Assembly: GCA_951406725.2 (NCBI GenBank)
Contig: OX597814.1
Location: forward strand, 7,626,001-7,690,000
Origin: Octopus vulgaris
Taxonomy: Eukaryota
DNA length: 64,000 bases
Direction of reading: 5' to 3'
The notes under the pieces: model-generated
The model's database searches: none
The model's input: only the letters and a program-made list of their open reading frames with translations
Told to the model about the DNA's origin: nothing
Program-made: the position numbers and the translations under genes
Part shown: positions 64 through 61,556 of the stretch, piece by piece
Layout: each line of letters begins with the position of its first letter
How positions within the stretch are numbered: position 1 is the first letter of the stretch

Positions 64-1960
64 TTAATCCCTGTTCACGGTGCAAACGGGAGTCCGGATG
101 ACCTCTGTGCAAGGACAATCCGAACACAGACAGATGTTGCAAGGAGTGACCAGTGGAGCGGAAATGGTGTCATTGCCGAGGTGGATGTCTCGGAGGTGTT
201 CCGCGAACCGGTCAACCAAGCGGTGTCCTGTTTGTCCGATATACAGGGAATGGCAGAGAGAGCAGAATATGCAATAGATGATATTTCTGGAGGTGCAGGT
301 GAAGGAGTCGATGATGCGATAGGGTCGATGATGGGTGCCGGGGAGGAGGGTGGTGTTGGAGAGGTAAGGGCAAGTGCGACAGCGTGGGCGGGAGCAGGGG
401 AACGAGCCAGGTTGGGAGGTAGGGTTGGGGAAGAAGTTAAGGACCAAGAGGACTCGTAGGTTGTGGGCTCGTTTGAAGGAGGAGAGGGGTCTGTTAGGGA
501 AGATGTGTGAAGTGGACGGGTTGGACTGGAGATGCCGGAAAGCTCGGAGAATGGTGCGTTGGAGAGGTAGGGTGGTGGGGTGGTAGGTGAGGGGAAAAGG
601 GAGCGGGGAGACTTCAGGGTGGGGTGGGGGTGGGGGAGAACAGATGCACGGTCTACGGAGCGTGCTCTGACAAGGGCGGTGTGGATAGTGGTGGGGATAT
701 CCACGTAAGATGAAGTGGCAAAGTCTCAAAGTCATGGTCATCACTATAGAGCCTGCGTAGATGGAGGAATTGGGAATAGGGGATGGAAAGCTTGGTGTAT
801 TTGGGGTGGGAGGAGAAGTTTAGGTATGAGTGTGAGTCTGTATGTTTGTAGTGGATGGAGGTGGTAAGAGTAGAGTGATGAATGCTGACCGAAATGTCAA
901 GAAAGGAGACAGAGGTGTCAGAGATAGTGCAGGAGAAGTGGAGGGCAGGATGGAAAGATTTGACGAAAGAGAGGAAGGAGTCTTGATGTTCGCGGGAGAG
1001 TGAGGTGGCACCGATACAGTCGTCAATATAACGGCCATATAGTTCGGGAGTGGGACCAGTGAAACTAGAGAATATTTGGGCCTCAACATAGCCAACGAAC
1101 AGGTTCGCATAGTTGGGGCCCATTCTCTTCTCCATGGTCACTCCCGAGACCTGCTGGTAAAACTCGCCCGCGAACGAGAAGCAGTTGAGTGAGAGGACAA
1201 GTTCGGCCAGACGAACGAGTGTGGAGGTGTAAGGCTGGGAAGTGTTTCAGTGAATGCAGCCCCTCGTTGCGAGGGATCACAGTGTAGAGTCTCTGGATGT
1301 CCATTATAAGGAGAAGTTTGGAGGGAAGGAGAAAGAGCTGAATAGACGAAGAGCATGGTTTGTGTCATGGATGTGACAAGGAAGAGAAGCCACTAGGGGG
1401 TGCAAGGATACGGTCGAGATATTTGGAGATAAGCTCGGTGGGGCAGTTACAGGCGGTGACGATGGGGCGGCCAAGGTTGTTGGGTTTGTGGATTTGGGGG
1501 AGGAAGTTAATGGTGGGGATGCGGGGAGTTCGGACAATGATGTTGGATGCGGTGTGGGGGAGGTGGGAGGACGAGATGAGGTCATGGATGGTTGAGGAGA
1601 CCGTCTATTGGTAGCTGGGCGTGGGGTCAGACGACAGAGGGCAGTAGAAGGAGGTGTCATGGAGTTGGCAGAGAGCTTCGGCCTTGTAGAGGTCCACATG
1701 CCATACCACCACAGCTCCACCCTTGTTGGCCGGTTTAATAACGATGTCAGTGTGCCGTCGGAGGGATCGAAGAGCCGAGAGTTTGGCTGGGGAGATGTTG
1801 AGACGATGGGAACACCTGGAGAAGTTGAACCGCTCTAAAGTGCACTGACAGACGCCCGAGAAAAGATCCACTGCTTGGAACTGGCCAGGAGCAGGCGTCC
1901 ACTGGGATGGTTGGCGGACCAGGTGAGTGAAGCAGTCCTCCTCGTTTGATGCGGGTGGAT
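64..1960 (-). mobile_element. Penelope-like retroelement (RT + GIY-YIG endonuclease), frameshifted
   Basis: ORF pieces carry MGPNYANLFVG and the RT motif YGRYIDDC, a CxxxxCxxC linker (CSRPRCRTC) and GIY-YIG NIIYCIFC...LYIGQTGHRLVDRFAEH; several frameshifts. Confidence 0.9.
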
Positions 1961-5850: not shown

Positions 5851-6023
5851 GCTTTATAATATATTTTATTTTTCATTTATGATTTGGTTTACGTCTATCA
5901 TTGTTTGAATTACATAATAGTGGTTTTTCTCTAATTTTCATATATTGTATATTTATATTGTGAAATTTGATTTAATACTAAATTAATACTGTAAGTTTGG
6001 AGTTATACTCCCTATTATCATCA

Positions 6024-6058
<35 letters not shown>

Positions 6059-6316
6059 TTACTTCTTTCTTCAAACTCTCTTCCGTTTCTCGCCGAGTGT
6101 TTTCCGTACACCTAGGACAGAGAAGCTCATTGTATGCATTCCCAGGTTACACACACAATTCGAGACACGTGTGATTCGAACTGAATAGCACGTGTCTCGA
6201 ATGGGCTGGAGAATTTGTATTTTGGATATATTTGGGGTACTTAATTGTGCTAATGACTTAGTGTTTGCTTCTTCCATGGGTATGAGTAAGTATTTCATTT
6301 ATTTTCTTTACCACAT

Positions 6317-6370
6317 TTATCACTGACGAAAGGAGGGTTCTTATGAACTAACCCTGAAATCAGTCCGATA
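6317..6370 (+). ncRNA. Degenerate hammerhead motif
   Basis: CTGACGA (6323-6329), stem II AGGGTT/AACCCT, GAAAtCAGTC, flanked by TATC/GATA. Confidence 0.5.
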
Positions 6371-6609
6371 TGGTAATAACGGAATTTTTTAGAAATTTCT
6401 GTCGACCTTTTTCGAGTAATGTGCTTATTGTAATAAATTGAATGGTTATGGACAATGTGTCTAGTTTCGGCATATTTGGCATTAGAAATTTTTTCGTTTG
6501 CGCTTATTTATAAGTTGTTTATAAATTTAACCTTTAAAGGTATTTTTTAATATGCTGGCCATTGATAACATTTTTTTAGAAAAATTTTATCCTACATTAG
6601 ATGTATATA

Positions 6610-15659: not shown

Positions 15660-15665
<6 letters not shown>

Positions 15666-17650
15666 TTAGAGACAAAACCACTATTTTGCAAAACAAACAA
15701 GGAAAGACTTAATCAATACATAAAATGTTAATAAAAAGTCAAAAAAACCGCCACTACAATTGTTTCTTGTCTTGATCGACAATCTTCAGGTGGACTTCCA
15801 ATCTAAAATATCAATATTTTAAAATATAAAAATAATAATTTTAAAATAATTAAAGTATTAATGAAGAAATATAAATATATAATCTATTTATAACCTATAT
15901 ATAATCCATATATAATCAATATATAAACAATATATAAACTAAAATAAACCTATCAACAATTAAATATAAAATATAAAATATAAAATATAAAATATAAAAC
16001 AAAACAAAAAATAAACTATATATACACCCATACACCTATAACTAATTATATATAACCATATCTAAATACATACACTAAATCACACACCTATATATATATC
16101 CCTATACATACACATAAAAACGTCTAGGCAACGATAAATAAATAAAATAGCTAAATACTTCAACACAATACTTATTCATACTCCCTCACACACACATACA
16201 ACCCACATTCCCGCTCTAGAAACGGACATCACTTAAAATTATGAACGGAGAAATGGAATAAATGGAATTAAAAATTATATTCACTTGGTAAAACGAACAC
16301 TACTTAAAAATTATGAATGAAATAATGCAATAAAACAACAGACATCGCAAATAGACACAAATTACTACGAATTCCCTAACAAAACTACCATGATAAACCA
16401 AAACTCATAAAAACATATAATGATAAAATCTCCCTTTACTAAACTCTATAACATACCTATATAGCAATCCCCCTAACCTAAACATTCACACACAAATACA
16501 CACACGTAAACCACACACCCACGACATATACAAATACCCACCCCACTTACACATACCTATACATACATATAAACCTCAACATATACTCCAAAAACCCACT
16601 CAACCCCACACTGACAAATAAACACATACATCCCCAAACCTAAATAGCAAACCCATAAACACATTCACACACAAATATACATACGTAAAACACACACCAT
16701 ATACATATACATACTCACCAAACTCAATATATACAACAATATTAACACTCCCACATTCATACAGATAAACAAACTACACAACCAAAATACGCACACACTC
16801 ACACACAATCCCACATACATAAACACTCCAAAGAAAAACAACATTATTACACATAATACGATATATAAAATACATCGTAAGTAACCAGAATATCAAAAAT
16901 AACAATATGACATAAAGAGAAATAATATACATACTTTCAAGTCAGTTTCAAATTATGAAGTGAAATTAAATTCTAATCCGTTAAAAACATCAAACCAAAT
17001 TACGTTACCATAGGAACATAACTTATGTATAAAAAGAATACGCGCTATGGAAGCAAACCTCACTTAAAATTATGAATGGAGAAATAGAATAAATGGAATT
17101 AAAAATTATATACACGCGGTAAACCAACATTATTTAAAAAAATTATGAATGGATTCTTTTATAAAACTACCATGATAAACTAAAACTCACAAAAACATAA
17201 ATGATAAAACCTCCCTTTACTAAACCCTATAACATACTTATATAGCAATCCCTTTAACCTATACATTCACACACAAATACACACACGTAAACCACACACC
17301 CATAACAAATACAAACACCCACCCCACTCACACACACACCCACAAGTACATATAAGCCTCAACATATACACCAAACAAAATTACGTTACCAAGGAACTTA
17401 ACATATGTATAAAAAGTATTCCCGCTCTGGAAACGAACATCTTTTAAAAATTATGAATGGAGAAATGGAATAAATGGAATTAAAAATAATATTCACGTGG
17501 CAAAACGAACACCACTCAAAAATTATGAATGAAACAATGTAATAAAACAACAAACATCGTAAATAGACAAATTACCACGAATTCCCTAAAAAAACCATGA
17601 TAAACCAAAACTCATAAAAACATATAACGATAAAATCTCCCTTTGCTAAA

Positions 17651-17828: not shown

Positions 17829-19643
17829 TCATATGTTGTGGTGTGTGCTATTGCTCCATTCTAGTTTTCTATTCAGGCTAGGTTTATTTTCTATTATATG
17901 TGTAGCTTCTGTAATTTGTCTAATTGTTGCGTCTGTTCTATGTATGGACAATATCTTAATCTCTATGTTATTGATTGATCCCCCGTGTTCCTGTTCGGCG
18001 TGTTGGTACAGAATCGATGAGCTTTTACCTTCCTTGAGTTGTCTCCAATGTTCATTCACCCACTCTCCTATGCTTCTTGCCATTTCCCCTACGTATGTTA
18101 TTGTCTTGTTACTGCATCGTCCCTCTATACATCTTATACTATAGACTACATTTCTGGCTTTACAGTTTGTTTGTGGGCTAAATCTACATATAGTGCAATA
18201 GTTATCCGTACAGGGGGTTCTACTAAAAGGATAGGTTCTACCAATTATAGATTTGATAGGGTTGCCTGGCTTTTCAACAACCTTAATTCTTAGTTTAAGT
18301 TTATCTAGGGTCCTTCTAAAGCGGTACGCCAGTTCACCTCCAGGGGTGGTGTCAACGAACATGACACTCTGGTATTTATGGCTATCATACCAAGAGTTTG
18401 CCTTCCCTATTTTCTTTTTTGTTCTTTCTATAGTGTTCCATGACTTGTTACTATAGAGTGGGCAAATCCCATTCCTATCATTACATAATATATTATCAAA
18501 TTTCTTCATGGCTCCTTTGTATACTCTGATCCTTTCTTTATGGCTGTAACCTGAGAACTGCATGTGGTGAATGAAATACTGTATGTGTCTCTTTAATTCT
18601 GTAGGCTCGCACATGCGTGACACATTTCTCATTATTCTGATGAGGTCTGCCATCAAAATATTGAATTTGGCATTGCCCACAATGGCTGAGTTCCGGTGGA
18701 TCAGGTATTTTGAGGCCATAGGTTTGGCATAGTATGAATGAAGGATTTGGGTTTTATTTTTCACAATTTCTAGCCAGAGTTCAGTGTCTAGTACTGGTAG
18801 TCTATGGTTGGGGTGTTTAGTGGGGTAGTCTATTGTGACCTTAATACTCTGGTGGATGGAGTTAGCTATTTGCTGGATGCTCTCCATAGTATTAGTTTCT
18901 ATTACTATATCAACATTACTCTCTTGTGGGGGTACCTTTACCACTATGTTGATATCATCAACATAGCGAGAGTACATGTTTACGACTATGGATTTCTGCA
19001 GTAGGCGTTCTTTAAGCCTTCTGTCCAACCATACCATGAAAAGGTTGGCCACATCACCAGCGATACTAACACCAATGGCTGCCCCCTCGTCCTGGGCATA
19101 TATTTTATTATTAAATTTAAACGTGTGGCCTTTTAGGGTAACTCTTATACTAGCTCCTAGTGCATGTGCGATCATTTTCTTTACCTGATGGACATTTGCG
19201 GGGCTCCGTATGGCTCTGGTCCATCCGCGCCATCTTTCTATATGTGTCTTCCTAGCCATAGAAGTAATTGTGGGCGGTCTACCTCTTAAACATCTACTGG
19301 GGCAGAAACTACTAAGATTATGTTTATCTAAGTATTCATTATTACATGTCAGTCTAAGTAGGAGGCCCAGTTCTTCTGTATTGACATTACAGAACTCCAC
19401 CTGGCTCTCGTTGATCATCTCCACGCATTTCTCCACTGCAAAATCTACGTCAATCGATGGGTATAGGGATACCACATCCATGCTACCTACTATACATCCT
19501 GTCAAATCACAAGTTTTGTTACAGTCACTGATCCTGCTTAGGAGATCTTCTGTGCTGTCACACACATCAGGTGACATCCTGATTATAGGGCGTATGATCA
19601 TTGAGAGGAAGTAGGAGATTCTGTAATTGCTAGCGATATTCAC
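17829..19643 (-). CDS. Penelope-like RT + GIY-YIG endonuclease ORF (604 aa, N-terminally truncated)
   Basis: SMDVVSLYPSI, GAAIG, YSRYVDDI, Cys linker, NVVYSIRC...TYVGEMARS...EH, RQITEA, PSLN. Confidence 0.92.
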   Translation of the reverse strand: MNIASNYRISYFLSMIIRPIIRMSPDVCDSTEDLLSRISDCNKTCDLTGCIVGSMDVVSLYPSIDVDFAVEKCVEMINESQVEFCNVNTEELGLLLRLTCNNEYLDKHNLSSFCPSRCLRGRPPTITSMARKTHIERWRGWTRAIRSPANVHQVKKMIAHALGASIRVTLKGHTFKFNNKIYAQDEGAAIGVSIAGDVANLFMVWLDRRLKERLLQKSIVVNMYSRYVDDINIVVKVPPQESNVDIVIETNTMESIQQIANSIHQSIKVTIDYPTKHPNHRLPVLDTELWLEIVKNKTQILHSYYAKPMASKYLIHRNSAIVGNAKFNILMADLIRIMRNVSRMCEPTELKRHIQYFIHHMQFSGYSHKERIRVYKGAMKKFDNILCNDRNGICPLYSNKSWNTIERTKKKIGKANSWYDSHKYQSVMFVDTTPGGELAYRFRRTLDKLKLRIKVVEKPGNPIKSIIGRTYPFSRTPCTDNYCTICRFSPQTNCKARNVVYSIRCIEGRCSNKTITYVGEMARSIGEWVNEHWRQLKEGKSSSILYQHAEQEHGGSINNIEIKILSIHRTDATIRQITEATHIIENKPSLNRKLEWSNSTHHNI

Positions 19644-20079
19644 TCCACAGACTGGTCTTGTTGGTGGTCCTGCTATAGGATCAGTAAAAACTTTATGGTC
19701 CTTGCGAAGTCCATACAGTGCCGGGATATCATTGTTCTAGGCTTGGAAATTATTCGCAGTACGTTTCTGGGGTCCCAGAACAATTGTCCACATCATCATG
19801 TGGGCATTGAGGACCTTTTCTCTCTCCTCATGTGCCTGTACAGTTGTTATTTTTGTATTGGCGATATGAGGTTGCATTGCCTGGATGTAGTTCGGTAAGC
19901 TGCCGGACTTATTATGGTTTTCTGTTAAATATATACTCAATGTATGATTAATATGTATCATTACTCTTCATTTACTGGGGAAAAAATGTCTACATGGGCT
20001 ACTTTCATTCACAAAAGCTATTACTATGGTTCACCAAAAATAAAAGAATCTGAAATAAAAAAGAAAGGATGTTACACAA

Positions 20080-27287: not shown

Positions 27288-27832
27288 TCATCATCATCAT
27301 CATTTAGCGTCCGCTTTCCATGCTAGCATGGGTTGGACGGGTCAACTGGGGTCTGTGAAGCTGGAAGGCTTCGTCAGGCCCAGTCAGATCTGGCAGTGTT
27401 TCTATGGCTAGATGCCCTTCCTAACGCCAACCACTCCGCGAGTGTAGTGGGTGTTTTTTACGTGCCACCTGCACAGGTGCCAGACAGAGCTGGCAAACGG
27501 CCACGAACGGACGGTGCTTTTACATGTCACCGGCACGGGGCCAGGCGATGCTGGCAACGGACACGAATGGATGGTGCTTTTACATGCCACCGACACGGGG
27601 CCAGACAGAGCTGGCAAACGGCCACGAACGGACGGTGCTTTTACGTGTCACCGGCACGGGGGCCAGCCGAGGCTGGCAACGGACACTTACGGATGGTGCT
27701 TTTACGTGCCACCGACACGGGGCCAGACAGAGCTGGCAAACGGCCACGAACGAACGGTGCTTTTATGTGTCACCGGCTGGCAACGGACACGAACGGATGG
27801 TGCTTTTACGTGCCACCGACACGGGGCCAGAC
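27288..27832 (-). mobile_element. RTE 3'UTR/tail copy with ~60-bp internal tandem repeats
   Basis: (CAT)n followed by the reverse complement of the RTE tail; very similar to 45712-46292. Confidence 0.85.
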
Positions 27833-34740: not shown

Positions 34741-35372
<632 letters not shown>

Positions 35373-35731: not shown

Positions 35732-35767
<36 letters not shown>

Positions 35768-35815
35768 ATAATAAATCTCTGAACGAGGTATAAACAGTAA
35801 CTGCACGACAATGTG

Positions 35816-35880
<65 letters not shown>

Positions 35881-38911: not shown

Positions 38912-39095
38912 AGGCGCAGGAGTGGCTATGTGGTAAGTAGCTTGCTAACCAACTACATGGTTCCGGGTTCAGTCCCACTGTGTAGCATCTTGGGCAAGTA
39001 TCTTCTACTGTAGCCTCGGGCCGACCAAAGCCTTGTGAGTGGATTTGGTAGATGGAAACTGAAAGAAGCCTGTCGTATATATGTATATATATATA
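38912..39095 (+). mobile_element. OK-type tRNA-derived SINE head (tail probably at 46295-46535)
   Basis: aggcgcaggagtggctatgtggtaag...ggttccgggttcagtcccactg...gaagcctgtcgtatatatg. Confidence 0.85.
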
Positions 39096-39423
39096 TTATA
39101 TTAAATTAGAGATAAAACCACTATTAGGCAAATCAAACAGTGAAAAACATAAGCCAATACATAAAATTAATTTTAAAATATAAAAGTTAAAAGTTAAAAA
39201 ATTATTAAAATAATTTAAACTTATAAATTTTAAGTATATATATACAAATATATATATATATGTATGTATATTTTTATATTTATATATTATTTTGTTTACT
39301 AATTAATTAATTTATTTATTTTATTTATTTATTTTTTATTTATTTATTTTTTATGTATTTATTTTTTATTTTTTATATAAATATCAAAAGTATTAAAAGT
39401 TTAATAAAAGATAAAGAGTAAAA

Positions 39424-39516
39424 CACTACCATCGTTTCATGGCTGTACCAATTCGAATAACAATAATTTAAATTCAGTTAATAATTCGAGTTATGGTTAC
39501 AGTCAATCTTCAGGTT
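39424..39516 (-). ncRNA. Hammerhead ribozyme with extended stem II and weak stem I
   Basis: AC-CTGAAGA-TTGACTGTAACCA...TCGAAT...ATTCGA..TGGTACAGCCAT-GAAAC-GATG-GTA-GT. Confidence 0.7.
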
Positions 39517-40114
39517 AATTGAAATATTTAAAAAATAATCAGAAATATTTAAACAATATTTTTAAGATATAAATAATATAATAAACAATGATAAATCTCA
39601 GAGCGAGTTATAAACAGTAGCGGTAACACATCGTGTTGCATATTTGCCAGCTGGTGGAGATATCTTCCTGGGGCTACAAACTACAGTAGCATCCACCCTT
39701 ATGTGTTCGCCATATTCAAATGGCAAATATGCGTCACGATGTGTTACCGCTACTGTTTATAACTCGCTCTGAGATTTATCATTGTTTGATTTCACTTTTT
39801 CAATATCAGTGTCATATCGACACTGGAAAAAGTATATGTATTTGTGAAGGGATCTGACTTCTCATCGACAACCATGATTGTTATTTGTCTAGGGACACCT
39901 CTTTCATCTGCGTTTTGAGAATTTTGCTGCCTTTTTGTTGAGTGAGTTCGTATTTTTTGTTCATCGTTGTTTGTGAATTATTACTCGTGAATTGAACAGT
40001 TGTCCGTTGTGTAAAAGTAATTTTCGCCCTACGGGGCAGAAAATTCTGTGTTTAAACATTGTCATTACCTTCGAGGTAATTTTTTTGAAACATTTGTTCT
40101 CATAATTTTGAGAA

Positions 40115-41364
40115 ATGGATTTCGACTTGGCGTCGAGGAGTGACTTTCCCGTGATGGGAAAAGGTGAACAAAAGGATACCGAAGTCAAAAAACAGTCTTT
40201 TTCGGCCGCAGTGGGCAGAACCGTAACGGATGTAGAATTTAAGATTGAACAGTTATTCGAATACCGGAACTTGGTAAAAACGGAAGGAAATGAAATTAAA
40301 CTGGTACCGCCGCAAGCGAAGATACAGGAAATAAAGGCAGAGACAGTTGTATACAAAGTTTATAGCAACAAAGAAAAAAAATAATGGATGTCAAGAACGA
40401 GATAGTAGAAAAGTGCTTGTCCCCGGTGTGGGACAAAATTCGCCACGTTGTTCGAGGTGCTCGCTGCGCTACCGTTGAAGCACATTTCGACTCGGCTGAT
40501 GTGGCAAGAGAGGTGTCATCAATGACCTTGAAAAGTGAGGATATCATGTTGCTACCTTCGTATATGGGGAAAAGATCAGCCAAACTACATGTAGAGGATA
40601 TACCGAGAGGGTATGATATAATGTGGGTAGCAGCGGCAGTCCTGCACAACGTAGAGTGGGAAGTTTCAATTCTGCAGATGAGAAGGAAAGAGGAGGTGCA
40701 CTGGAAAGGACAAACGCTAGAACTCCTCGTTCAAGCAGAAAATAAGATACTAGAAAACTTACCCGATAGGGTATTTAATGAGGAGGGAACTTCAATGAGA
40801 GTGTCAGTGGAGGGGCGCAGACCTAGGTGCTTCAAATGTGGCGAAAAGGGTCACGTTCGCTCAAACTGCTTAAAAAAAGAGAAAATCAACGAAGCCCCTC
40901 CTCAAAGTGCTTCAAACACTGAAAAAGAAAAGGCGGAAAAAGAACCCAAGACTGCGACAAGGAAAGGAACTGAAACGGAAGATGAAAATGAACAGATGGA
41001 ATATACACAGGTGACACACAAAAGAAAAAAAGATAACACCCTGGACTCCCCTCCCCAAACAAAGAAAAAATCAGCAAACACCGCAGAGATACATACAAAA
41101 CAAATTCCCCAGCCCTACCCCCACGGCACTGTATTCATTGGAACACAGTTCGCCAAGCCCCTCCCCATAAAACAAGATTTGAAAAAATTGTTAAAAAAAA
41201 ATGATAAGATTATAGCATTTGACGAGAAGAACGATAGGGTGTACAAATATTTCAAATTTTCAAAAGTTAAACTATTCAGTAAGTCTACAGACACAAAATC
41301 AACCACTCGCTTCGCAAAAATAAAGGAAGACGAGTGGAAGGAAAAACACTACAAGAACATTTAA
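40115..41364 (+). pseudogene. Tx1 ORF1 with CCHC zinc knuckle; apparent frameshift in the A-run at ~40375
   Basis: VSVEGRRPRCFKCGEKGHVRSNC. Confidence 0.85.
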
Positions 41365-41576
41365 AGAATAATTTTATAAGAGATGTAACGAAGGAAATAC
41401 TGGAGGGTAAACTTATTATAACCCCGGCAACCACACCTACCCAGAGCCCGATGGCAACGCCGGTTAAGAGCCCTGCAGCTACGACCACAAGGGAGGAAGA
41501 AGGGGAAGCGGGCAGATTTAAACTGTCATGCTCCCTTTCTCAACCGTAAGTTTATTTATTTTTTCTCTCTCCGACA

Positions 41577-44500
41577 ATGGCAAAGCTGGGTTGTGTGAAT
41601 GTGCGTGGAATGGGGTCGAAATGGAAACAAATTTGTTTCCTGAACGACCTCACGACACACGGAGTGGACGTAGCTATTGTAACCGAGTCCAAGATGAACG
41701 GGGCCCAAGCGTTCTCGCCTCTTCTAAATGGTTTCGAGAAATTTATTTCTCCTAGGCGAGGAAGAGGCGTGGCAGTCCTTATCAGGAAGAGCTTGAACTT
41801 GCAGGTAAGTACTGTCTTTCTGGACCCAGAAGGCAGGCTGGTCGTTCTGGATGTGACCCACGTAAGTAAACAGTCCTTCAGGTTGGTAGCTGTCTACGCT
41901 CCGAATGAGTGTAGGCAGGCGGGTTTTTCGGAATCTGGAGCACTTTTTAGTGACGTCGAAAACGGTAGTCTTAGTAGGGGACTTTAACACTGTCCTTGAA
42001 GTGCGGGTCGACAGTGTTGGCTCAACCAATAGGAAGGGGAACCCTAGCCTCAAGGGTCTACTAGAGAGCTTTGATCTAGTGGACCGTTATCGACTGGATG
42101 AGCCGAGCGTTCCACAGTGGACGTGGAGTAACAACGACGGCTCACACAGATCGTATATAGATAGGATATTCGTTAGGAAAAGAGATAAGGATACGTTTAG
42201 TTGTCCACAGTTTCACATTGTGCCTTACACAGATCACAAATTTGTGACCTGTAGGGTGCAATTAGATAAGTGCCATAGACAGGGACCCGGGTACTGGAAG
42301 CTGAACAAGTCTATTTTGAATTGTGAAGACTTCCATACCCGGATTAAGGTGTTAGTACAGAGGGCATTGTGTGGCACCATCATTAACAATAGATGGTGGC
42401 ACTCCCTCAAAAGAGCCATTCGTTCAGAGTCCATTAGATTTAGCAATCAGCTAAGGTTAGATAGGTCTAGGATAGAGGACGATTTAGTTAAGAATCTAAA
42501 CGAGGCAATGGAAGCTGGCTCTGCATCCGGAGTGATGACGGCAAGGACGGTATTGTACCGTCACCTTAACTCCAAACACAAAGGTTGCAGAGTCAGAGCT
42601 AAGCTACGCGCTGGGAAACGAGAAGGTATTAACGTTGCCGGATGGGCCCGTTGAGTGGAGAGTCAGAGAGGTAACAAAGCTTCAATCAAGTCTTTAACTG
42701 ACGAATAGGGACAAAAGATCTATGGACAGGAGAAGATGCAAAAGTTTCTCCACCAGCATTTCGCCCGCATGTTCGGGGGTGGTGTGGCGCCGGAGCAGGG
42801 GAGGGCCTTAAAGGACTTCCTAGCCGGCGGACCGCGGCTCTTGGGGCGTGAGGTGGAGTGCTGTGAAGGAGCGATCACTCCCGCGGAGATAGAGGGGATA
42901 CTGGCTGGATGCGCCGGGGAGAAGTCGCCGGGGTTGGATGGTCTGCCCTACGAGTTTTACCAAAGTATGCCGGACTTGTTCGGGGGAATAATGGCAGGTG
43001 TCTACGCGAACTGGCAGCAGAATGGGAGAATTCCCAGTTCTGTAAGCTGGGGAGTGGTGACGCTAATCCAGAAAGACCCGAGCAAGGGGGATAACATTAG
43101 TAATTACAGGCCCATAACACTACTTAATGTAGAGTTAAAGATTTTGGCCAAGATGTTGGCAAAAAGGTTGACGATTGTCGTGGAGAAACTTGTAGGGAAA
43201 GCACAGACATGTGCAATTCCAGGCAGGTTGATCCAGGACAATCTTCACCTTATACGCTACACCTTAGATAGGGTGGGTAAATTAACCGGCAAGGGCGGGG
43301 TAATGGTCCATTTAGACCAAAGTAAAGCGTTCGATAGGGTAGACCATAAGTACCTGGCGACGGTCCTCGAAGCGGCTGGACTGGGCCGTGAATTTCGCGG
43401 GTGGATCTCCGCTATGTATAGCGGCATCAAGTCCACCGTCCAGAAACGGATACCTAACGGAACCGTTTTCGATCGAATGTTCAGTTCGTCAAGGGTGCCC
43501 CTTGTCACCACTTTTGTACGTGTTGGCTCTCGAGCCATTGCTGCGAAAGTTGGAGAGGCTGGGAAGTAACCCGGATGAGATCGGAGGTGGGAGGACGGTT
43601 ACTGCTTATGCGGATGACGTCACCCTCATCGTGTGCAATGAGGCCCAGCTACCTTGTGTAGAAGATGCTATCAGAGGATACGAGGCGGTGGCAGGAGCAA
43701 GGGTTAACAAGGACAAGTCGGTTGGCTTGCGCCTCGGCACCTGGAGGAGCAAGTCGATATCGTCCAGTGTCATGGGACACTGGATGGATGGTCCTGTTAA
43801 GTTGCTTGGAGTTTGGTTTGGGTCAGACTCCCAAACGGAGAGGAATTGGAGTGAGGTGACGAACAAGGTGGAGGCCATAGTACGGACCTGGTCCGGAAGG
43901 TCTCTGTCCTTGAAAGGAAGGGCGGAGGTGGCACAGATGTTCATTGCATCTGTAATCACTTACCGCCTGACCGCTGTCCCTTGCCCTGATTCATGGCTTA
44001 GCAAGTTGGAGCGAATCCTTTTCCGCTTTTTGTGGAAGGGAGGAAAGCCACTTGTGAGGCGCTCCGTTTGCTGCCAGGAACCGTTAAAGGGTGGGTTAGG
44101 AATGCCTTGGTTGATGATGCGCAGGCATGCGTTGAGGCTGAAGCATCTCTGGCACCACCTGAAGAGTGATAAGGTGTGGAGTCCGCTGGCAGGGGAATTT
44201 TTCCTGAGACCGGCTTCCTTAGTGAATTTTAAACCCAGTCGCATCAAAAGACGGAATCTGACTTTATGGCAAAAGGAGTGCCGACAAGCACTCACGCTGA
44301 TCCACAAGGCGGGCAAGGCCGGCTGCGGAAATACGACCTCGGTATTTTATAGCAGGCTGGTAGAGGCAAAGAACGACGACGTCCTAGGAGGGGCTCTGGG
44401 GTTTGACGAAGACCAGCTTACCAACCTGTTTAAAAAGACTTTCAGGACGGGGTATTTGGATAATTTCCAAAGATCCCTGGCCTGGCAGTGTTATAGGAAT

Positions 44501-44957
44501 GCTTTACCTGTTCGCGAGAAGTTATCGCGGCACGGAATTTCAGTGCCACCGACGTGACCAAGATGCGGGTTGGACGATGAAACCGTCCAGCACGCTTTTG
44601 TACACTGTCGGAAGTTGTCAGACTTGATAAGTTACGCAGAACACGTGTTATCGCATCTGGGACGAGTACAGCTGTCGGCTGAGTCTATGATTAAAGATGA
44701 TACCGCCAACTGGACTCTCGAAGGAAGGTGAGGCATGTTTTCACTGCACGGTTGCAGTAGTAAAAGAATGCATGTGGCGTACAAGAATGGAAGGAGTCGC
44801 AATAGGATCCTTTGTCTCAGGCCCCGGCTTGCTCACTTACTTCAGATATCATCTGAAGAGCAAAATGGGGCTGGAAAAGAAGATCTTACCACGAGGTGTG
44901 TATGAAAAAAGATGGAAGGAAGTGGCAAAAAAGGTGGGTGTCAGAAACCCAGCTTAA
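41577..44957 (+). pseudogene. Tx1 ORF2 (APE endonuclease + RT) with frameshifts and stops
   Basis: CVNVRG, AVYAP, VGDFN, SYIDRIF, TDH, GPGYWKLN, KSPGLDG, NYRPITLLN, DQSKAFD, VRQGCPLSP, AYADD, GGLG. Confidence 0.93.
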
Positions 44958-45236
44958 CTATGGATGGAGGAGAGGAAAGAAAAGCTGCGGGGCCTTATAG
45001 GTTGCCGGGGTTTAAAATATATCGGTAAGAGCGCAAGTTAATGTAATGTTGTAATGTTCTATTAAGTCAATGCAAAGGACCATTTAAATACAAATTTTGT
45101 TTAAGGAATAATCCATATATTATGGAAAATTTTTAATCGAACCACTTAACTGTTTTTTGTATGTATGTCCTGTATTGTCCTTCTATGTAATGATTTTATA
45201 ATCGTAATAAAGAAATTCATCGACAACCATGATTGT

Positions 45237-45281
45237 CACACGCTGATGAAAGGTAAACACCTTGAAACTCGGGTACGTGTG
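45237..45281 (+). ncRNA. Canonical type-I hammerhead ribozyme
   Basis: CACACG-CTGATGA-AAGGT(AAAC)ACCTT-GAAAC-TCGG-GTA-CGTGTG; predicted cleavage after A45275. Confidence 0.92.
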
Positions 45282-45711
45282 TATCATGTGTTGAAGACGG
45301 GGAGGATGACTCCCCTTCACAAATACTGACAGGACACAGATAGTGTGTCTATAGCCAGCTGGTGGAGATATCTTCCTGGGGCTACAAACTACAGTAGCAT
45401 CCACCCTTATGGGTTAGCCATATTCAAATGGCAAATATGCAACACAAAATAATATAATAATTTTACTTATAATAAACTCTATTATCAAACTAGAAACTTA
45501 AAACTTAATAATTGTGATTATATCAAAATCGATTATAATGTTAAATATTAATTTTAATTTTTAAGGTAAGAAACCCACCGATAATCTAATGTCAGTAATA
45601 GTCTATATCTAATTACATAAATATAAAAAAAAAAAATGACTATTATATATAAAAAATTATCAATGGATATATATAAATGTATATATATAAAAATGTATAT
45701 ATATATGTATA

Positions 45712-46292
45712 TGTCCGTTGCCAGCCTCGATTGCCCCCATGCCGGTGACACGTAAAAGCACCATCCGTTCGTGGCCGTTTGCCAGCTCTGTCTGGCAACC
45801 GTGTCGGTGGCACATAAAAGCACCATCCGTTCGCGTCCGTTGCCAGCCTCGGCTGGCCCCCGTGCCGGTGACACGTAAAAGCACCGTCCGTTCGTGGCCG
45901 TTTGCCAGCTCTGTCTGGCCCCGTGTCGGTGGCACGTAAAAGCACCATCCGTTCATGTTCGTTGTCAGCCTCGGCTGGCCCCCGTGCCGGTGACACGTAA
46001 AAGCACCATCCGTTCGTGTCCATTGCCAGCATCGCCTGGCCCCGTGCCGGTGACACGTAAAAGCACCGTCCGTTCGTGGCCGTTTGCCAGCTCTGTTTGG
46101 CACCTGTGCAGGTGGCACGTAAAAAACACCCACTACACTCGCGGAGTGGTTGGCGTTAGGAAGGGCATCCAGCCGTAGAAACACTGCCAGATCTGACTGG
46201 GCCTGACGAAGCCTTCCAGCTTCACAGACCCCAGTTGACCCGTCCAACCCATGCTAGCATGGAAAGCGGACGCTAAATGATGATGATGATGA
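45712..46292 (+). mobile_element. RTE 3'UTR/tail with ~60-bp tandem repeats
   Basis: Repeated ccccgtgccggtgacacgtaaaagcacc; (GAT)n end. Confidence 0.85.
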
Positions 46293-52856: not shown

Positions 52857-55800
52857 AGTACCATGTATAAAGTACCTCTTCTGGTACCATGTATAAAACA
52901 CCTCTACTGGTACCATGTATAAAGCACCTCTACTGGTACCATGTATAAAGCACCTCTGTTGGTACCATGCATAAAGCACCCCTATTGGCACCATGTATAA
53001 AGCACCTCTATTGGTACCATGTATAAAGCACCTCTACTGGTACCATGTATAAAGCACCTCTATTGGTACCATGTATAAAGCACCTCAACTGGTACCATGT
53101 ATAAAGCACCTCAACTGGTACCATGTATAAAGCACCTCTATTGGTACCATGTATAAAGCATCTCTACTGGTACAATGTATAAAGCACCCCTATTGGACTA
53201 TGTATAAAGCCCCTCTACTGGTACCATGTATAAAGCACCTCTACTGGTACAATGTATAAAGCCCCTCTATTGGTACCATGTATAAAGCCTCTCTATTGGT
53301 ATTATGTATAAAGCATCTCTATTGGTACCATGTATAAAGCCCCTCTACTGGTACCATGTATAAATCACCTCTATTGGTACCATGTATAAAGCACCTCAAC
53401 TGGTACCATGTATAAAGCACCTTTACTGGTACCATGTATAAAGCACCAGTGTTGGTACCATGTATAAAGCACCTCAACTGATACCATGTATAAAGCACCT
53501 CTACTAGTACCATGTATAAAACACCTCCGTTGGTACCATGTATAAAGCCCCTCTACTGGTACCATGTATAAATCACCTCTATTGGTACCATGTATGAAGC
53601 ACCTTTACTGGTACCATGTATAAAGCACCTCTACTGGTACCATGTATAAAGCACCTCTACTGGTACCATGTATAAAGCATCTCTACTGGTACCATGTATA
53701 AAGCACCTCTATTGGTACCATGTATAAAGCACCTCTACTGGTACCATGTATAAGGCACCAGTGTTGGTACCATGTATAAAGCACCTCTATGGGTACCATT
53801 TATAAAGCACCTCTAGTGGTACCATGTATGAAACACCTCTACTGGTACCATGTATAAAGCACATCTACTGGTACCATATATAAAGCACCTCTATTGGTAC
53901 TATGTATGAAACACCTCTACTGGTACCATGTATAAAGCACCAGTGTTGGTACCATGTATAAAGCACCTCTCCTGGTACCATGTATAAAGCACCTCTACTG
54001 GTACCATGTATAAGGCACCAGTGTTGGTACCATGTATAAAGCACCTCTCCTGGTACCATGTATAAAGCACCTCTATTGGTACCATGTATAAAGCACCTCT
54101 ATTGGTACCATGTATAAAGCACCTCTACTGGTACCATGTATAAAGCACCTCTATTGGTACCATGTATAAAGCACCTCTACTTGTACCATGTATAAAGCAC
54201 CTCTAGTGGTTCCATGTATAAAGCACCTCTACTGGTACCATGTATAAAGCACCTCTATTGGTACCATGTATAAAGCCCTCTACTGGTACCATGTATAAAG
54301 CACCTCTAGTGGTACCATGTATAAATCACCTCTATTGGTACCATGTATAAAGCACCTCAACTGGTACCATGTATAAAGCACCTCTACTGGTACCATGTAT
54401 AAAACACCTCTACTGGTACCATGTATAAAGCACCTCAACTGATACCATGTATAAAGCACCTCTATTGGTACCATGTATGAAGCACCTTTACTGGTACCAT
54501 GTATAAAGCACCTCTACTGGTACCATGTATAAAGCACCTCTACTGGTACCATGTATAAAGCACCTCTACTGGTACCATGTATAAAGCACCTCTATTGGTA
54601 CCATGTATAAAGCACCTCTACTGGTACCATGTATAAAGGCACCAGTGTTGGTACCATGTATAAAGCACCTCTATGGGTACCATTTATAAAGCACCTCTAG
54701 TGGTACCATGTATAAAACACCTCTACTGGTACCATGTATAAAGCACATCTACTGGTACCATGTATAAAGCACCTCTATTGGTACCATGTATGAAACACCT
54801 CTACTGGTACCATGTATAAAGCACCAGTGTTGGTACCATGTATAAAGCACCTCTCCTGGTACCATGTATAAAGCACCTCTACTGGTACCATGTATAAAGC
54901 ACCTCTATTGGTACCATGTATAAAGCACCTCTATTGGTACCATGTATAAAGCACCTCTACTGGTACCATGTATAAGGCACCAGTGTTGGTACCATGTATA
55001 AAGCACCTCTCCTGGTACCATGTATAAAGCACCTCTACTGGTACCATGTATAAAGCACCTTTACTGGTACCATGTATAAAACACCTCTACTGGTACCATG
55101 TATAAAGCACCTCAACTGATACCATGTATAAATCACCTCTATTGGTACCATGTATGAAGCACCTTTACTGGTACCATGTATAAAGCACCTCTACTGGTAC
55201 CATGTATAAAGCATCTCTACTGGTACCATGTATAAAGCACCTCTATTGGTACCATGTATAAAGCACCTCTACTGGTACCATGTATAAGGCACCAGTGTTG
55301 GTACCATGTATAAAGCACCTCTATGGGTACCATTTATAAAGCACCTCTAGTGGTACTATGTATAAAACACCTCTACTGGTACCATGTATAAAGCACATCT
55401 ACTGGTACCATGTATAAAGCACCAGTGTTGGTACCATGTATAAAGCACCTCTCCTGGTACCATGTATAAAGCACCTCTATTGGTACCATGTATAAAGCAC
55501 CTCTACTGGTACCATGTATAAAGCACCTCTATTGGTACCATGTATAAAGCACCTCTATTGGTACCATGTATAAAACACCTCTACTGGTACCATGTATAAA
55601 TCACCTCTATTGGTACCATGTATAAAGCACCTCTACTGGTACCATGTATAAAGCACCTCTACTGGTACCATGTATAAAGCACCTCTACTGGTACCATGTA
55701 TAAACCTCTATGGTACCATGTATAAAGCACCTCATGGTACTGACTGGTACCATGTATAAAGCACCTCTACTGGTACCATGTATAAAGCACCTCCACTGGT

Positions 55801-58105
55801 ACCATGTATAAAGCACCTCTACTGGTACCATGTATAAACACCTCTATTGGTACCATGTATAAAGCACCTCTACTGGTACCATGTATAAAGCACCTCTATT
55901 GGTACCATGTATAAAGCACCTCTACTGGTACCATGTATAAAGCACCTCTACTGGTACCATGTATAAAGCACCTCTATTGGTACCATGTATAAAGCACCTC
56001 TACTGGTACCACTGGTACAGTATAAAGCACCTCTATGTACCATGTATAAAGCACCTCTACTGGTACCATGTATAAGGCAGTGTTGGTACCATGTATAAAG
56101 CACCTCTCCTGGTACCATGTATAAAGCACCTCTACTGGTACCATGTATAAAGCACCTCTATTGGTACCATGTATAAAGCACCTCTACTGGTACCATGTAT
56201 AAAGCACCAGTGTTGGTACCATGTATAAAGCACCTCTCCTGGTACCATGTATAAAGCACCTCTATTGGTACCATGTATAAAGCACCTCTATTGGTACCAT
56301 GTATAAAGCACCTCTATTGGTACCATGTATAAAGCACCTCTACTGGTACCATGTATAAAGCACCTCTATTGGTACCATGTATAAAGCACCTCTATTGGTA
56401 CCATGTATAAAGCACCTCTATTGGTACCATGTATAAAGCCCCTCTACTGGTACCATGTGTAAAGCACCTCTATTGGTACCATGTATAAAGCCCCTCTACT
56501 TGTACCATGTATAAAGCACCTCTAGTGGTACCATGTATAAAGCCCCTCTACTGGTACCATGTGTAAAGCACCTCTATTGGTACCATGTATAAAGCCCCTC
56601 TACTGGTACCATGTATAAAGCACCTCTAGTGGTACCATGTATAAATCACCTCTATTGGTACCATGTATAAAGCATCTCAACTGGTACCATGTATAAAGCA
56701 CCTTTACTGGTACCATGTATAAAACACCTCTACTGGTACCATGTATAAAGCACCTCAACTGATACCATGTATAAAGCACCTCTACTACTACCATGTATAA
56801 AACACCTCCGTTGGTACCATGTATAAAGTCCCTCTACTGGTACCATGTATAAAGCACCTCTATTGGTACCATGTATGAAGCACCTTTACTGGTACCATGT
56901 ATAAAGCACCTCTACTGGTACCATGTATAAAGCACCTCTACTGGTACCATGTATAAAGCATCTCTACTGGTACCATGTATAAAGCACCTCTATTGGTACC
57001 ATGTATAAAGCACCTCTACTGGTACCATGTATAAGGCACCAGTGTTGGTACCATGTATAAAGCACCTCTATGGGTACCATTTATAAAGCACCTCTAGTGG
57101 TACCATGTATAAAACACCTCTACTGTACCATGTATAAAGCACATCTACTGGTACCATATATAAAGCACCTCTATTGGTACCATGTATCAAACACCTCTAC
57201 TGGTACCATGTATAAAGCACCTCTACTGGTACCATGTATAAAGCACCTCTGTTGGTACCATGTATAAAGCACCTCTATTGGTACCATGTATAAAGCACCT
57301 CTATTGGTACCATGTATAAAGCCCCTCTATTGGTACCATGTATAAAGCACCTCTACTGGTACCATGTATAAAGCACCTCTACTGGTACCATGTATAAACA
57401 CCTCTATTGGTACCATGTATAAAGCACCTCTATTGGTACCATGTATAAAGCACCTCTATTGGTACCATGTATAAAGCCCCTCTACTGGTACCATGTGTAA
57501 AGCACCTCTATTGGTACCATGTATAAAGCCCTCTACTTGTACCATGTATAAAGCACCTCTAGTGGTACCATGTATAAAGCCCTCTACTGGTACCATGTGT
57601 AAAGCACCTCTATTGGTACCATGTATAAAGCCCCTCTACTTGTACCATGTATAAAGCACCTCTAGTGGTACCATGTATAAAGCCCCTCTACTGGTACCAT
57701 GTATAAAGCACCTCTATTGGTACCATGTATGAAACACCTCTACTGGTACCATGTATAAAGCACCTCTATTGTTACCATGTATAGAGCACCTCTACTTGTA
57801 CCTTGTATAAAGCACCTCTACTGGTACCATGTATAAAGCACCTCTATTGGTACCATGTATAGAGCACCTCTACTTGTACCTTGTATAAAGCACCTCTTCT
57901 GGTACCATGTATAAAGCCCCTCTATTGGTATCATGTATAAAGCACCTCTATTGGTACCATGTATAAAGCCCCTCTATTGGTATCATGTATAAAGCACCTC
58001 TATTGGTACCATGTATGAAACACCTCTACTGGTACCATGTATAAAGCACCTCTACTGGTACCATGTATAAAGCACCTCTATTGGTACCATGTATAAAGCA
58101 CCAGT
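52857..58105. repeat. 26-bp satellite array, ~200 copies (GGTACCATGTATAAAGCACCTCTAYT)
   Basis: Directly visible; variant blocks recur. Confidence 0.98.
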
Positions 58106-60399: not shown

Positions 60400-61556
60400 G
60401 CAACTATAGGGATATGCTCAGGGCATGCTTATTCACTTGCATCATTCTCACCACTTTCATTCACCTTTTGGCAAACTGGCTAGATGACAACACTCCCCTC
60501 TCTACCCTTGTTTCCCTTTTCAAGTAAAACTTGAGGAAGTTGATTAGCGATTGACCAAACAGAAAAGTGTTTGTCTTCAGCCTCTTCAATCTCATCCACC
60601 ATACAACCACATTTACCATGGCCACTAGGTATATAAAAACAGATTTTCCTTCCCAGTTAAAGGAAAGCGACAAGGCAATTTTCATGATGGATCAGTTGAC
60701 AGCCAGATCTGTCCCACATGTGACAGTAGGTGTTCAACATAAACCCATAAGTCAGCAATGCTTGGGCACTGCGCAAATGAATGCAGGATCATCTTGTGGT
60801 CCTTGCACACATCTCATCTGACATACTCAACTGACGGCAATTCCGTGCCTGTAAATTTTATCTCAAACAGGCAAAGCTCCCTGGTAGACTGCCAGGGCAG
60901 ATATTTTGGGAAATTATCCATCGGTTGCAGCCTGAGAGTTCTCCAGAAAAGAGTGACTAGCTGATCTTCTTCAATGCCTGAGGTCTCCCCCAGAACGTTG
61001 TTGCAATTTTGCTCTACTAATCCTCTATAAAACGCTAAAGTAGACGTTCCACCCATCGCAGGGTCTGATTGGCTGAGGGTTGTGAGTACTTGAAGACATT
61101 CTGCTTTCCAAATGCTGCCCCTCGATCTCTGTTTTACCCAAGAATGCAGCTCCCTTAAAGAAACTAGCTGCAGAGATATGTATCTGGTGAATGGCGACCA
61201 CACCTGTTCACCATCAAGGAAGTACCGGAGATGTCGTAGCCTCAGTGCATGTCTGTGCATCATCAACCATGGTATGCCCAGGCCACCACACATCAGGTGT
61301 TGACAGTAGATAGACTGCCTGGCCATCGAGACATGTCCCTTCCACAAGAAATGGAAGAGTATATGCTCCAGCATAATCAAACAGGAGCCAAGACAAGGCA
61401 CAATGGTCAAGTGACAGCAGATGACAGATGCGATTTATGTGTTACCACCTCTGCCTGACCTTTCAGGGATAGCTTTCTCTCTACCCATTTCTGGGTGAGA
61501 GTAGTCGTCCTGCTCATTACCTTATCCCAATTTTGGTCCATCTGGAGTGACATCTG
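60400..61556 (-). mobile_element. Degenerate Tx1-clade LINE 3' fragment
   Basis: KLSLKGQAEV and FLWKG...GGLGIPWLMMHRHALRLRHL, homologous to 43900-44950. Confidence 0.85.

Follow-up and report, generated by a model that had tools for sequence, protein, structure and literature searches.

A dispersed 353-nt hammerhead repeat of Octopus vulgaris with Penelope-type insertion scars, split by an L1/Tx1-type LINE

Results

Anatomy of the Split Element

The window analysed in this study, a 64,000-nt stretch of Octopus vulgaris DNA (assembly GCA_951406725.2, contig OX597814.1, positions 7,626,001 to 7,690,000 of the forward strand), is AT- and microsatellite-rich animal DNA full of decayed long interspersed nuclear elements (LINEs) as well as Penelope-type open reading frames (ORFs). 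Between 39571 and 45460, it carries an element that is with good probability a dispersed copy of a high-copy 353-nt hammerhead repeat, which was likely inserted in trans by Penelope machinery and later split by a full-length L1/Tx1-type LINE. This copy, which is real, well preserved and dead, comes from a retrozyme-type family and bears clear scars of Penelope-type insertion.

The removal by script of 39882-45236, which comprises the LINE and one copy of its duplication, left 507 nt between two outer duplications (39571-39584 and 45447-45460, both on the + strand) that are identical at 14/14 positions and consist of A/T only; the last 2 nt of the left copy also fit the adjoining inverted arm. 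This agrees with the earlier note, made from the sequence alone, which had proposed a non-coding element of about 500 bp bounded by a 14-bp duplication. The inverted, 5'-truncated arm (39583-39649, - strand) is the reverse complement of unit positions 39721-39787 over 67 nt with 2 mismatches, as had also been claimed, and is followed by the upstream part of the unit (39650-39881, +), which holds the repeated start, a tail zone (39739-39787) and a hairpin linker, and within which lies the 5' arm of a long stem (39838-39851, +). The LINE (39882-45216, +; 5,335 bp) is flanked by a duplication of 20 bp (39862-39881 and 45217-45236, +; 20/20 identical), and through the right copy of this duplication the stem beneath the hammerhead motif (45237-45281, +) regains its 5' strand. 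The remainder of the unit (45282-45353, +) holds a terminal hairpin in addition to the long stem's 3' arm (45313-45326), and is followed by a partial second unit, a pseudo-long terminal repeat (pLTR)-like direct repeat (45354-45446, +) that stops at unit position 93. The direct repeat (39646-39737 and 45354-45445) shows 4 mismatches in 92 nt, with the inverted arm agreeing with the 3' copy at two of these four positions, and was recovered by BLASTN over 87 nt at 97.7%; after removal of the LINE, the distance between the two copies is 353 nt, the unit length given before. This copy comprises 1.25 units and one hammerhead.

In 200,000 random AT-rich position pairs, with pairs less than 200 nt apart skipped, a boundary-matched 14-mer arose by chance 333 times (0.17%) without microsatellites and 3,633 times (1.8%) when microsatellites were included. 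In addition, one contig of sequencing run X2 links 39560 to 45447 through 11 letters and resembles an empty site. Because of this low chance level and the element-free contig, the outer 14-bp repeat was taken as a real target-site duplication. The AT-rich host site (39500-39581 and 45447-45600) may itself be multicopy; element-free joints at this site were found in run X2 with depths of 69 and 324, and an opposite-strand joint from 39581 to 39740 was found in run X4 with a depth of 339. An assembly artefact was ruled out by the two exact duplications and by LINE-free joints in four runs.

Hammerhead Motif and Fold of the Unit

The motif at 45237-45281 has a complete type I hammerhead core (CUGAUGA / GAAA / UA); helices I and II comprise 6 and 5 bp, respectively, and the 2 bp of helix III are capped by a near-palindromic loop of 4 nt. 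Its cleavage triplet is GUA and ends at A45275, after which the cut is predicted. A strict descriptor of the motif matched in none of 100 simulated 64-kb sequences (0/100), which ruled out a chance hammerhead. Searches of viral sequences, metagenomes and prokaryotic genomes with a hammerhead pattern gave no match, as one would expect if the DNA is that of an animal. The rebuilt unit is non-coding (longest ATG frame of 46 codons in the tripled unit) and has a GC content of 42%.

Folding of the rebuilt unit, suggested in the earlier note for both the linear and the circular form, gave energies far below those of 100 shuffles each (z = -6.1 linear, -5.8 circular), and the long stem is present in the minimum free energy (MFE) fold. 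Since the reverse complement also lies far below its shuffles (z = -4.9), the fold energy cannot fix the strand, and only the hammerhead fixes the sense strand.

Copies of the Unit in Sequencing Runs

Contigs of four of the 24 listed sequencing runs (X2, X4, X6, and X12) were compared with the window at 88% likeness; of the 140 joints, 1,654 loose ends and 19,617 pieces obtained, the rows listed covered 15, 24 and 32, respectively. The earlier note had held that a lack of other copies would speak against its reading; the stretch 45217-45446 is present in 20 of the 24 listed runs, from nine studies with three organism labels, and LINE-free joints were found in all four runs compared. These joints lead from 39849/39850 to 45219/45221 through 14-16 letters that vary among the runs and differ from the window, with sides of 26, 29, 32, and 67 nt. 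They are subfamily variants, and because contigs skip the LINE in 4/4 runs, the rebuilt 353-nt unit represents a family of high copy number that has sequence variants. Summed contig depth in two DNA runs was 267-578 thousand in two bins of the unit compared with 6-14 thousand at the LINE ends; as the depth varies more than tenfold within the 5' end of the LINE itself, it was not converted into a copy number.

In run X12, another copy passes from the unit into AT-rich DNA at 45436, which lies 10 nt from where the present copy has its right end, and two opposite-strand joints in run X4 lie at 39740 and 39721; the geometry of the X12 and X4 joints is ambiguous. None of the 24 runs is listed as an RNA run. 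X6 and X12 might be guessed to be RNA, and they share one LINE-free variant that is absent from the DNA rows listed, which is a lead only; since their unit-to-LINE depth ratio resembles that of the DNA runs, no evidence of expression was drawn from them.

Penelope-Type Insertion Scars

In unit coordinates, the right end of the element lies at position 93 and the outer end of the inverted arm at position 142, so that the outer 49 nt of the arm (39583-39631, -) have no counterpart at the right end. The earlier note had described an inverted 5' piece but had overlooked this one-sided stretch, which is a Penelope-type tail, the optional extension of 30-40 nt at one end reported for such elements (PMC8557442, PMC3846280). 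The tail has been described as the stretch between two internal start sites of reverse transcription, of which the main one lies in an AC-rich stem-loop without homology to the AT-rich target (PMC11167929). In the present element, both ends coincide with predicted hairpin loops, that of a small AC-rich hairpin for the right end and that of a second hairpin for the tail end, and the right end shows no overlap with the target. A diverged solo-tail fragment of the same family (35764-35823, -; 77% identical), located inside a (TA)n tract, ends at the same unit position 142. Such end points suit target-primed insertion in trans by a Penelope-like element. Inverted arm and forward piece abut head to head and share four bases (39646-39649, +), as read from the junction strings; the forward piece is 442 nt long, of which 271 nt lie beyond the predicted cleavage site.

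The typical Penelope layout comprises two direct repeats, an adjacent inverted repeat, a one-sided tail and a short duplication (PMC3846280, PMC8557442). The element likewise shows a partial tandem forming a pLTR, an inverted 5'-truncated arm, a one-sided tail, an AT-rich or microsatellite target and a short duplication, with the LINE added later, so that the architecture ascribed to it in the earlier note was borne out. No frame encoding a reverse transcriptase (RT) plus GIY-YIG endonuclease was found between the repeats of the unit; because the unit has no coding frame, the Penelope protein would have come in trans. Non-autonomous Penelope derivatives and trans-mobilisation between pLTRs have been described previously (PMC8557442, PMC3846280).

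A cleaved linear monomer is excluded as the template, since it cannot give rise to a forward cDNA that extends 271 nt across the predicted cleavage site. One alternative, possible although rather doubtful in our estimate, is that the hammerhead releases 353-nt monomers which a host ligase circularises, and that the Penelope RT then runs 1.25 times round the circle. A circular template for retrozyme insertion has been proposed, and retrozymes of 220-390 nt from mussel, coral and axolotl are described as abundant circles (PMC7229834); moreover, the octopus unit is stably folded as a circle (z -5.8). However, an uncleaved multimeric transcript explains the crossing of the site equally well and yields the same product, so that a circle is not required, and the multimer was the dominant substrate of the one Penelope protein tested in vitro (PMC11167929). 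The 4/92 differences between the repeats and the agreement of the arm with the 3' copy at two of them are demanded by neither model. The uncleaved multimer is slightly preferred as the template.

An ordinary LINE mechanism was also weighed, in which the element is a short interspersed nuclear element-like passenger of a LINE and the inversion arose by LINE twin priming. L1-type elements can indeed produce inversions with microhomology and 14-bp duplications. Against this stand the absence from the element of a poly(A) or LINE-like 3' end, its two fixed internal end points, and the inverted arm, which reaches beyond the right end and does not derive from upstream of the forward piece; the LINE, for its part, has its own duplication inside the element. 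This origin is scarcely credible, and insertion by Penelope machinery is retained.

Evidence Weighing Against a Penelope-Inserted Retrozyme

Several observations weigh against the preferred reading of a retrozyme-type repeat inserted by Penelope machinery. At the insertion itself, the outer duplication is of pure A/T composition and measures 14 bp, compared with 8-10 bp in rotifer Penelopes, and the tail is 49 nt long, compared with the 30-40 nt reported. No autonomous Penelope with matching ends was found in the window, where the two Penelope-type ORF regions are dissimilar to the unit. A tandem of two complete units, or of two hammerheads, was not seen in any of the contigs listed, which are short.

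The ribozyme raises further points of this kind. Rfam, to which the earlier note had looked for recognition of the hammerhead, gave no hammerhead match in the window, nor at E up to 10 in 45100-45500. In the MFE fold of the hammerhead monomer (-24.6 kcal/mol), CUGA of the core is paired with the loop of helix III; the catalytic fold (-19.0) lies 5.6 kcal/mol above the MFE, and the probability of helix III in the predicted monomer is about 1e-4. The earlier claim of a hammerhead seated on a long stem was thus right as to the complete core and the stem, but the catalytic fold is not the predicted ground state of the monomer. A dimer with an intermolecular helix III of 8 bp is predicted at -52.7 kcal/mol compared with -49.2 for two monomers, so the model suggests that the monomer misfolds and that the dimer is favoured. 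This accords with the description of the architecture with a 2-bp helix III as canonical for animals, poor as a monomer and active as a dimer (PMC4209133). On the other hand, eight of nine Xenopus retrozyme dimers tested showed no cleavage (bioRxiv 10.64898/2026.07.22.740005), and self-cleavage of the octopus hammerhead is put forward here as a prediction.

Depth along the unit is the last of these points. In run X2, it amounts to 451 thousand at 39746 but is about 40-fold lower, at 11.7 thousand, at 39815, and the linker of this copy is thus not shared, at 88% likeness, by most family members; such members may be linker variants, truncated copies or the ends of coding elements. The last of these possibilities leads to an alternative in which the element descends from an autonomous Penelope insertion (pLTR-ORF-pLTR) whose ORF was removed by a local deletion, the abundant hammerhead copies being the ends of coding elements; the 353-nt unit would then not propagate as such. 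The drop in depth between tail zone and linker would fit such a remnant, as would the order of a hammerhead with start sites 170-220 nt later, which resembles the pLTR-ORF start of Poseidon (PMC11167929), and the junction between tail and linker of other copies is not directly visible among the pieces listed. By contrast, contigs of a variant subfamily in run X6 cover the unit to 39809 and continue into a related hairpin linker in which, as read by eye, the hairpin is kept with one compensatory pair and one mismatch; this variant linker accounts for part of the drop in depth past the tail zone. No coding remnant was found in any frame of the unit, the whole unit, beyond the hammerhead alone, folds far better than shuffles, and both duplications are intact. 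Loss of an ORF is therefore considered highly unlikely, and a non-coding repeat mobilised in trans is preferred.

The Inserted LINE and Its Target

The LINE encodes an ORF1 with a CCHC knuckle (40366-41364) and, from 41550, an ORF2 with APE and RT domains (Pfam) that is now split into several frames; it ends shortly past an AATAAA, without a poly(A) run. Its relatives, which are unnamed, show 37-59% identity and possess APE, RT and zf-RVT domains. A profile of 24 of these relatives scored 405 bits on human L1 ORF2p compared with 135 on R2, and L1 ORF2p was the closest among solved structures. Judged by these domains and scores, the LINE belongs to the L1/Tx1 group; the label Tx1 itself is putative and follows from general features of Tx1 elements. 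An old, related L1/Tx1-type relic (60800-61550, -) shares 46% amino-acid identity with it.

The insertion separates the two arms of the 14-bp lower stem by 5.3 kb, while the 20-bp duplication leaves the hammerhead whole behind the LINE, with the predicted cut site 59 nt from the LINE end. Chance may have placed the LINE here; alternatively, and compatibly with the preferred origin of the repeat, it may represent a Tx1 family with target specificity for this one position in the hammerhead repeat, which we rate as marginally probable. For such targeting speak a full-length LINE within a 0.5-kb element, the exact 20-bp duplication, the similar depth of its 5' and 3' end bins, and the preference of many Tx1 families for multicopy targets, including other transposons (PMC4494074). 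The LINE-free variants listed all rejoin at 45219-45221, so that conservation in the family extends to most of the duplicated site. On the other side, this is a single insertion, whereas a target-specific Tx1 family is defined by the same target in >20% of flanks (PMC4494074), and the repeat is so abundant that a chance insertion is possible. Tx1 membership is itself putative. No loose end was seen at either end of the LINE among the 24 of 1,654 listed, and the relic at 60800-61550 has no hammerhead behind it. Likewise, neither a hammerhead nor similarity to the unit was found in the 80 of 366 metagenome L1/Tx1 loci that were kept (0/80), although at 25-40% identity these are too distant to bear on targeting.

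A further step would be a parasitism of three levels, in which Penelope mobilises the retrozyme, a Tx1 LINE targets the foot of the hammerhead stem, and the LINE uses the ribozyme of its host to cut its read-through transcript. The 20-bp duplication would then rebuild the ribozyme and place the cut 59 nt behind the LINE end, and the LINE, having no poly(A) run, would thereby carry a 3' tail that matches its target and serves to prime at the following retrozyme copy. We consider this full scheme unlikely.

Other Features of the Window

A second, unrelated type I hammerhead motif (15750-15793, -), with helix I of 4 bp, helix II of 5 bp and a perfectly palindromic helix III region, sits in an AT-rich piece ending in (TA)n near 15660. 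The end of this piece resembles 39076-39167 (84%), 34883-35029 and 5876-5958, and by this resemblance the piece and its look-alikes are likely a second dispersed Penelope-tail family. A weaker hammerhead-like motif (6315-6378, +), with a palindrome upstream at 6158-6202, passes the relaxed descriptor only. Penelope-type RT/endonuclease remnants of different families lie at 64-1834 (-) and 17829-19736 (-), the latter ending about 60 nt past its stop in a TA-rich microsatellite. Tandem arrays of 61/122 bp of an abundant short repeat occupy 27456-27777 and 45712-46124, one of which begins 250 nt behind the element, and a 26-bp satellite with about 200 copies spans 52858-58102.

Discussion

The structure of the locus is consistent with an insertion in which a Penelope protein would bind the tail zone of a multimeric transcript of the unit. 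An AT-rich target would be nicked on both strands, 14 nt apart, as the 14-bp duplication suggests. One nick may then have primed internally at position 93, giving the 442-nt copy that passes the cleavage site and 271 nt beyond it, while the other would have primed 49 nt further down, at position 142, and copied only 67 nt; the end points of both copies are read directly at the locus. Repair over the 4-nt overlap would join the two cDNAs head to head and leave the inverted arm with its tail, one unit and the partial repeat. The LINE came later, at the foot of the hammerhead stem, where its 20-bp duplication leaves a complete hammerhead directly behind it, and has decayed since. As the hammerhead is predicted to cleave mainly as a dimer in tandem transcripts, arrays would be expected as the family's source loci, and the present copy, having a single hammerhead, would be a dead end.

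Judged by its sequence, the element appears to work like a non-autonomous Penelope-like element, and it shows all the retrozyme features open to such a judgement except tandem arrays: a type I hammerhead core, a non-coding unit of 353 nt (range 150-450 nt), GC of 42% (below 50%), an RNA predicted to be highly self-paired, a multicopy family and a duplication of 14 bp (more than 4 bp). It shares with the metazoan non-LTR retrozymes described in PMC7229834, such as the 350-390 nt repeats of Mytilus and Rtz_353 of axolotl, the type I hammerhead in which helix III comprises 2 bp and carries a tetraloop, the non-coding and self-paired unit of about 350 nt with GC <50%, the high copy number and the duplication of >4 bp. 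It differs from them in its inverted arm and tail, the word "inverted" occurring 0 times in the main text of that paper; furthermore, the present copy comprises 1.25 units with one hammerhead.

The same mobilising machinery was concluded for retrozymes in bioRxiv 10.64898/2026.07.22.740005, where monomer copies are described as the offspring of active arrays; with 1.25 units and one hammerhead, the octopus copy does not count as active by the definition used there. That conclusion rests on co-occurrence and pLTR homology, mostly in vertebrates, whereas the argument made here is the insertion scar itself; a pLTR homologous to the octopus unit was not identified in the comparison with the two Penelope-type ORF regions of the window. 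Among Penelope insertions, Pen2a_Av (PMC3846280), the PAc Poseidon (PMC11167929) and Chlamys/MRC1 (PMC8557442) likewise show a partial tandem, an inverted 5'-truncated arm and a one-sided tail, together with an AT-rich target, a short duplication and internal start sites downstream of the hammerhead; unlike them, the octopus element has no ORF, and its tail is 49 nt. The non-autonomous MRC1-type elements belong, as described in PMC8557442, to a clade without canonical hammerheads, unlike this unit.

The inserted LINE resembles the target-preferring Tx1 LINEs (Tx1L in Tx1D, Tx1-Mar in Mariner-N4 and Keno in U2; PMC4494074) in its APE-RT, its CCHC ORF1 and its nesting with a long duplication in a multicopy element, but its host is a hammerhead repeat and a preference is conjectured here from one insertion. 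The kind of element reported is thus already catalogued, both as retrozymes (PMC7229834) and in its tie to Penelope (10.64898/2026.07.22.740005). Neither this 353-nt family nor a Tx1 LINE targeting hammerhead repeats was found in the literature searched, a search outside of which lay most subscription papers and, for the family, Repbase and Dfam; the family may already be listed in these databases or in the supplements of papers.

If the LINE is site-specific, the hammerhead repeat would be a target class that was not found in the literature searched. The R2 element uses a 5' ribozyme of its own, and a LINE that borrows the ribozyme of its host for its 3' end would, if true, parallel it. Without LINE targeting and ribozyme borrowing, the locus is an ordinary dead nested repeat. 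For the retrozymes, in contrast to their mobilisation by Penelope in animals as argued so far from co-occurrence and the homology of ends, a single ORF-less locus that combines a tail, an inverted arm and a duplication with a cDNA continuing across the cleavage site provides direct anatomical support. It also names two start sites for in vitro priming, and turns the choice between circle and multimer into a genome count.

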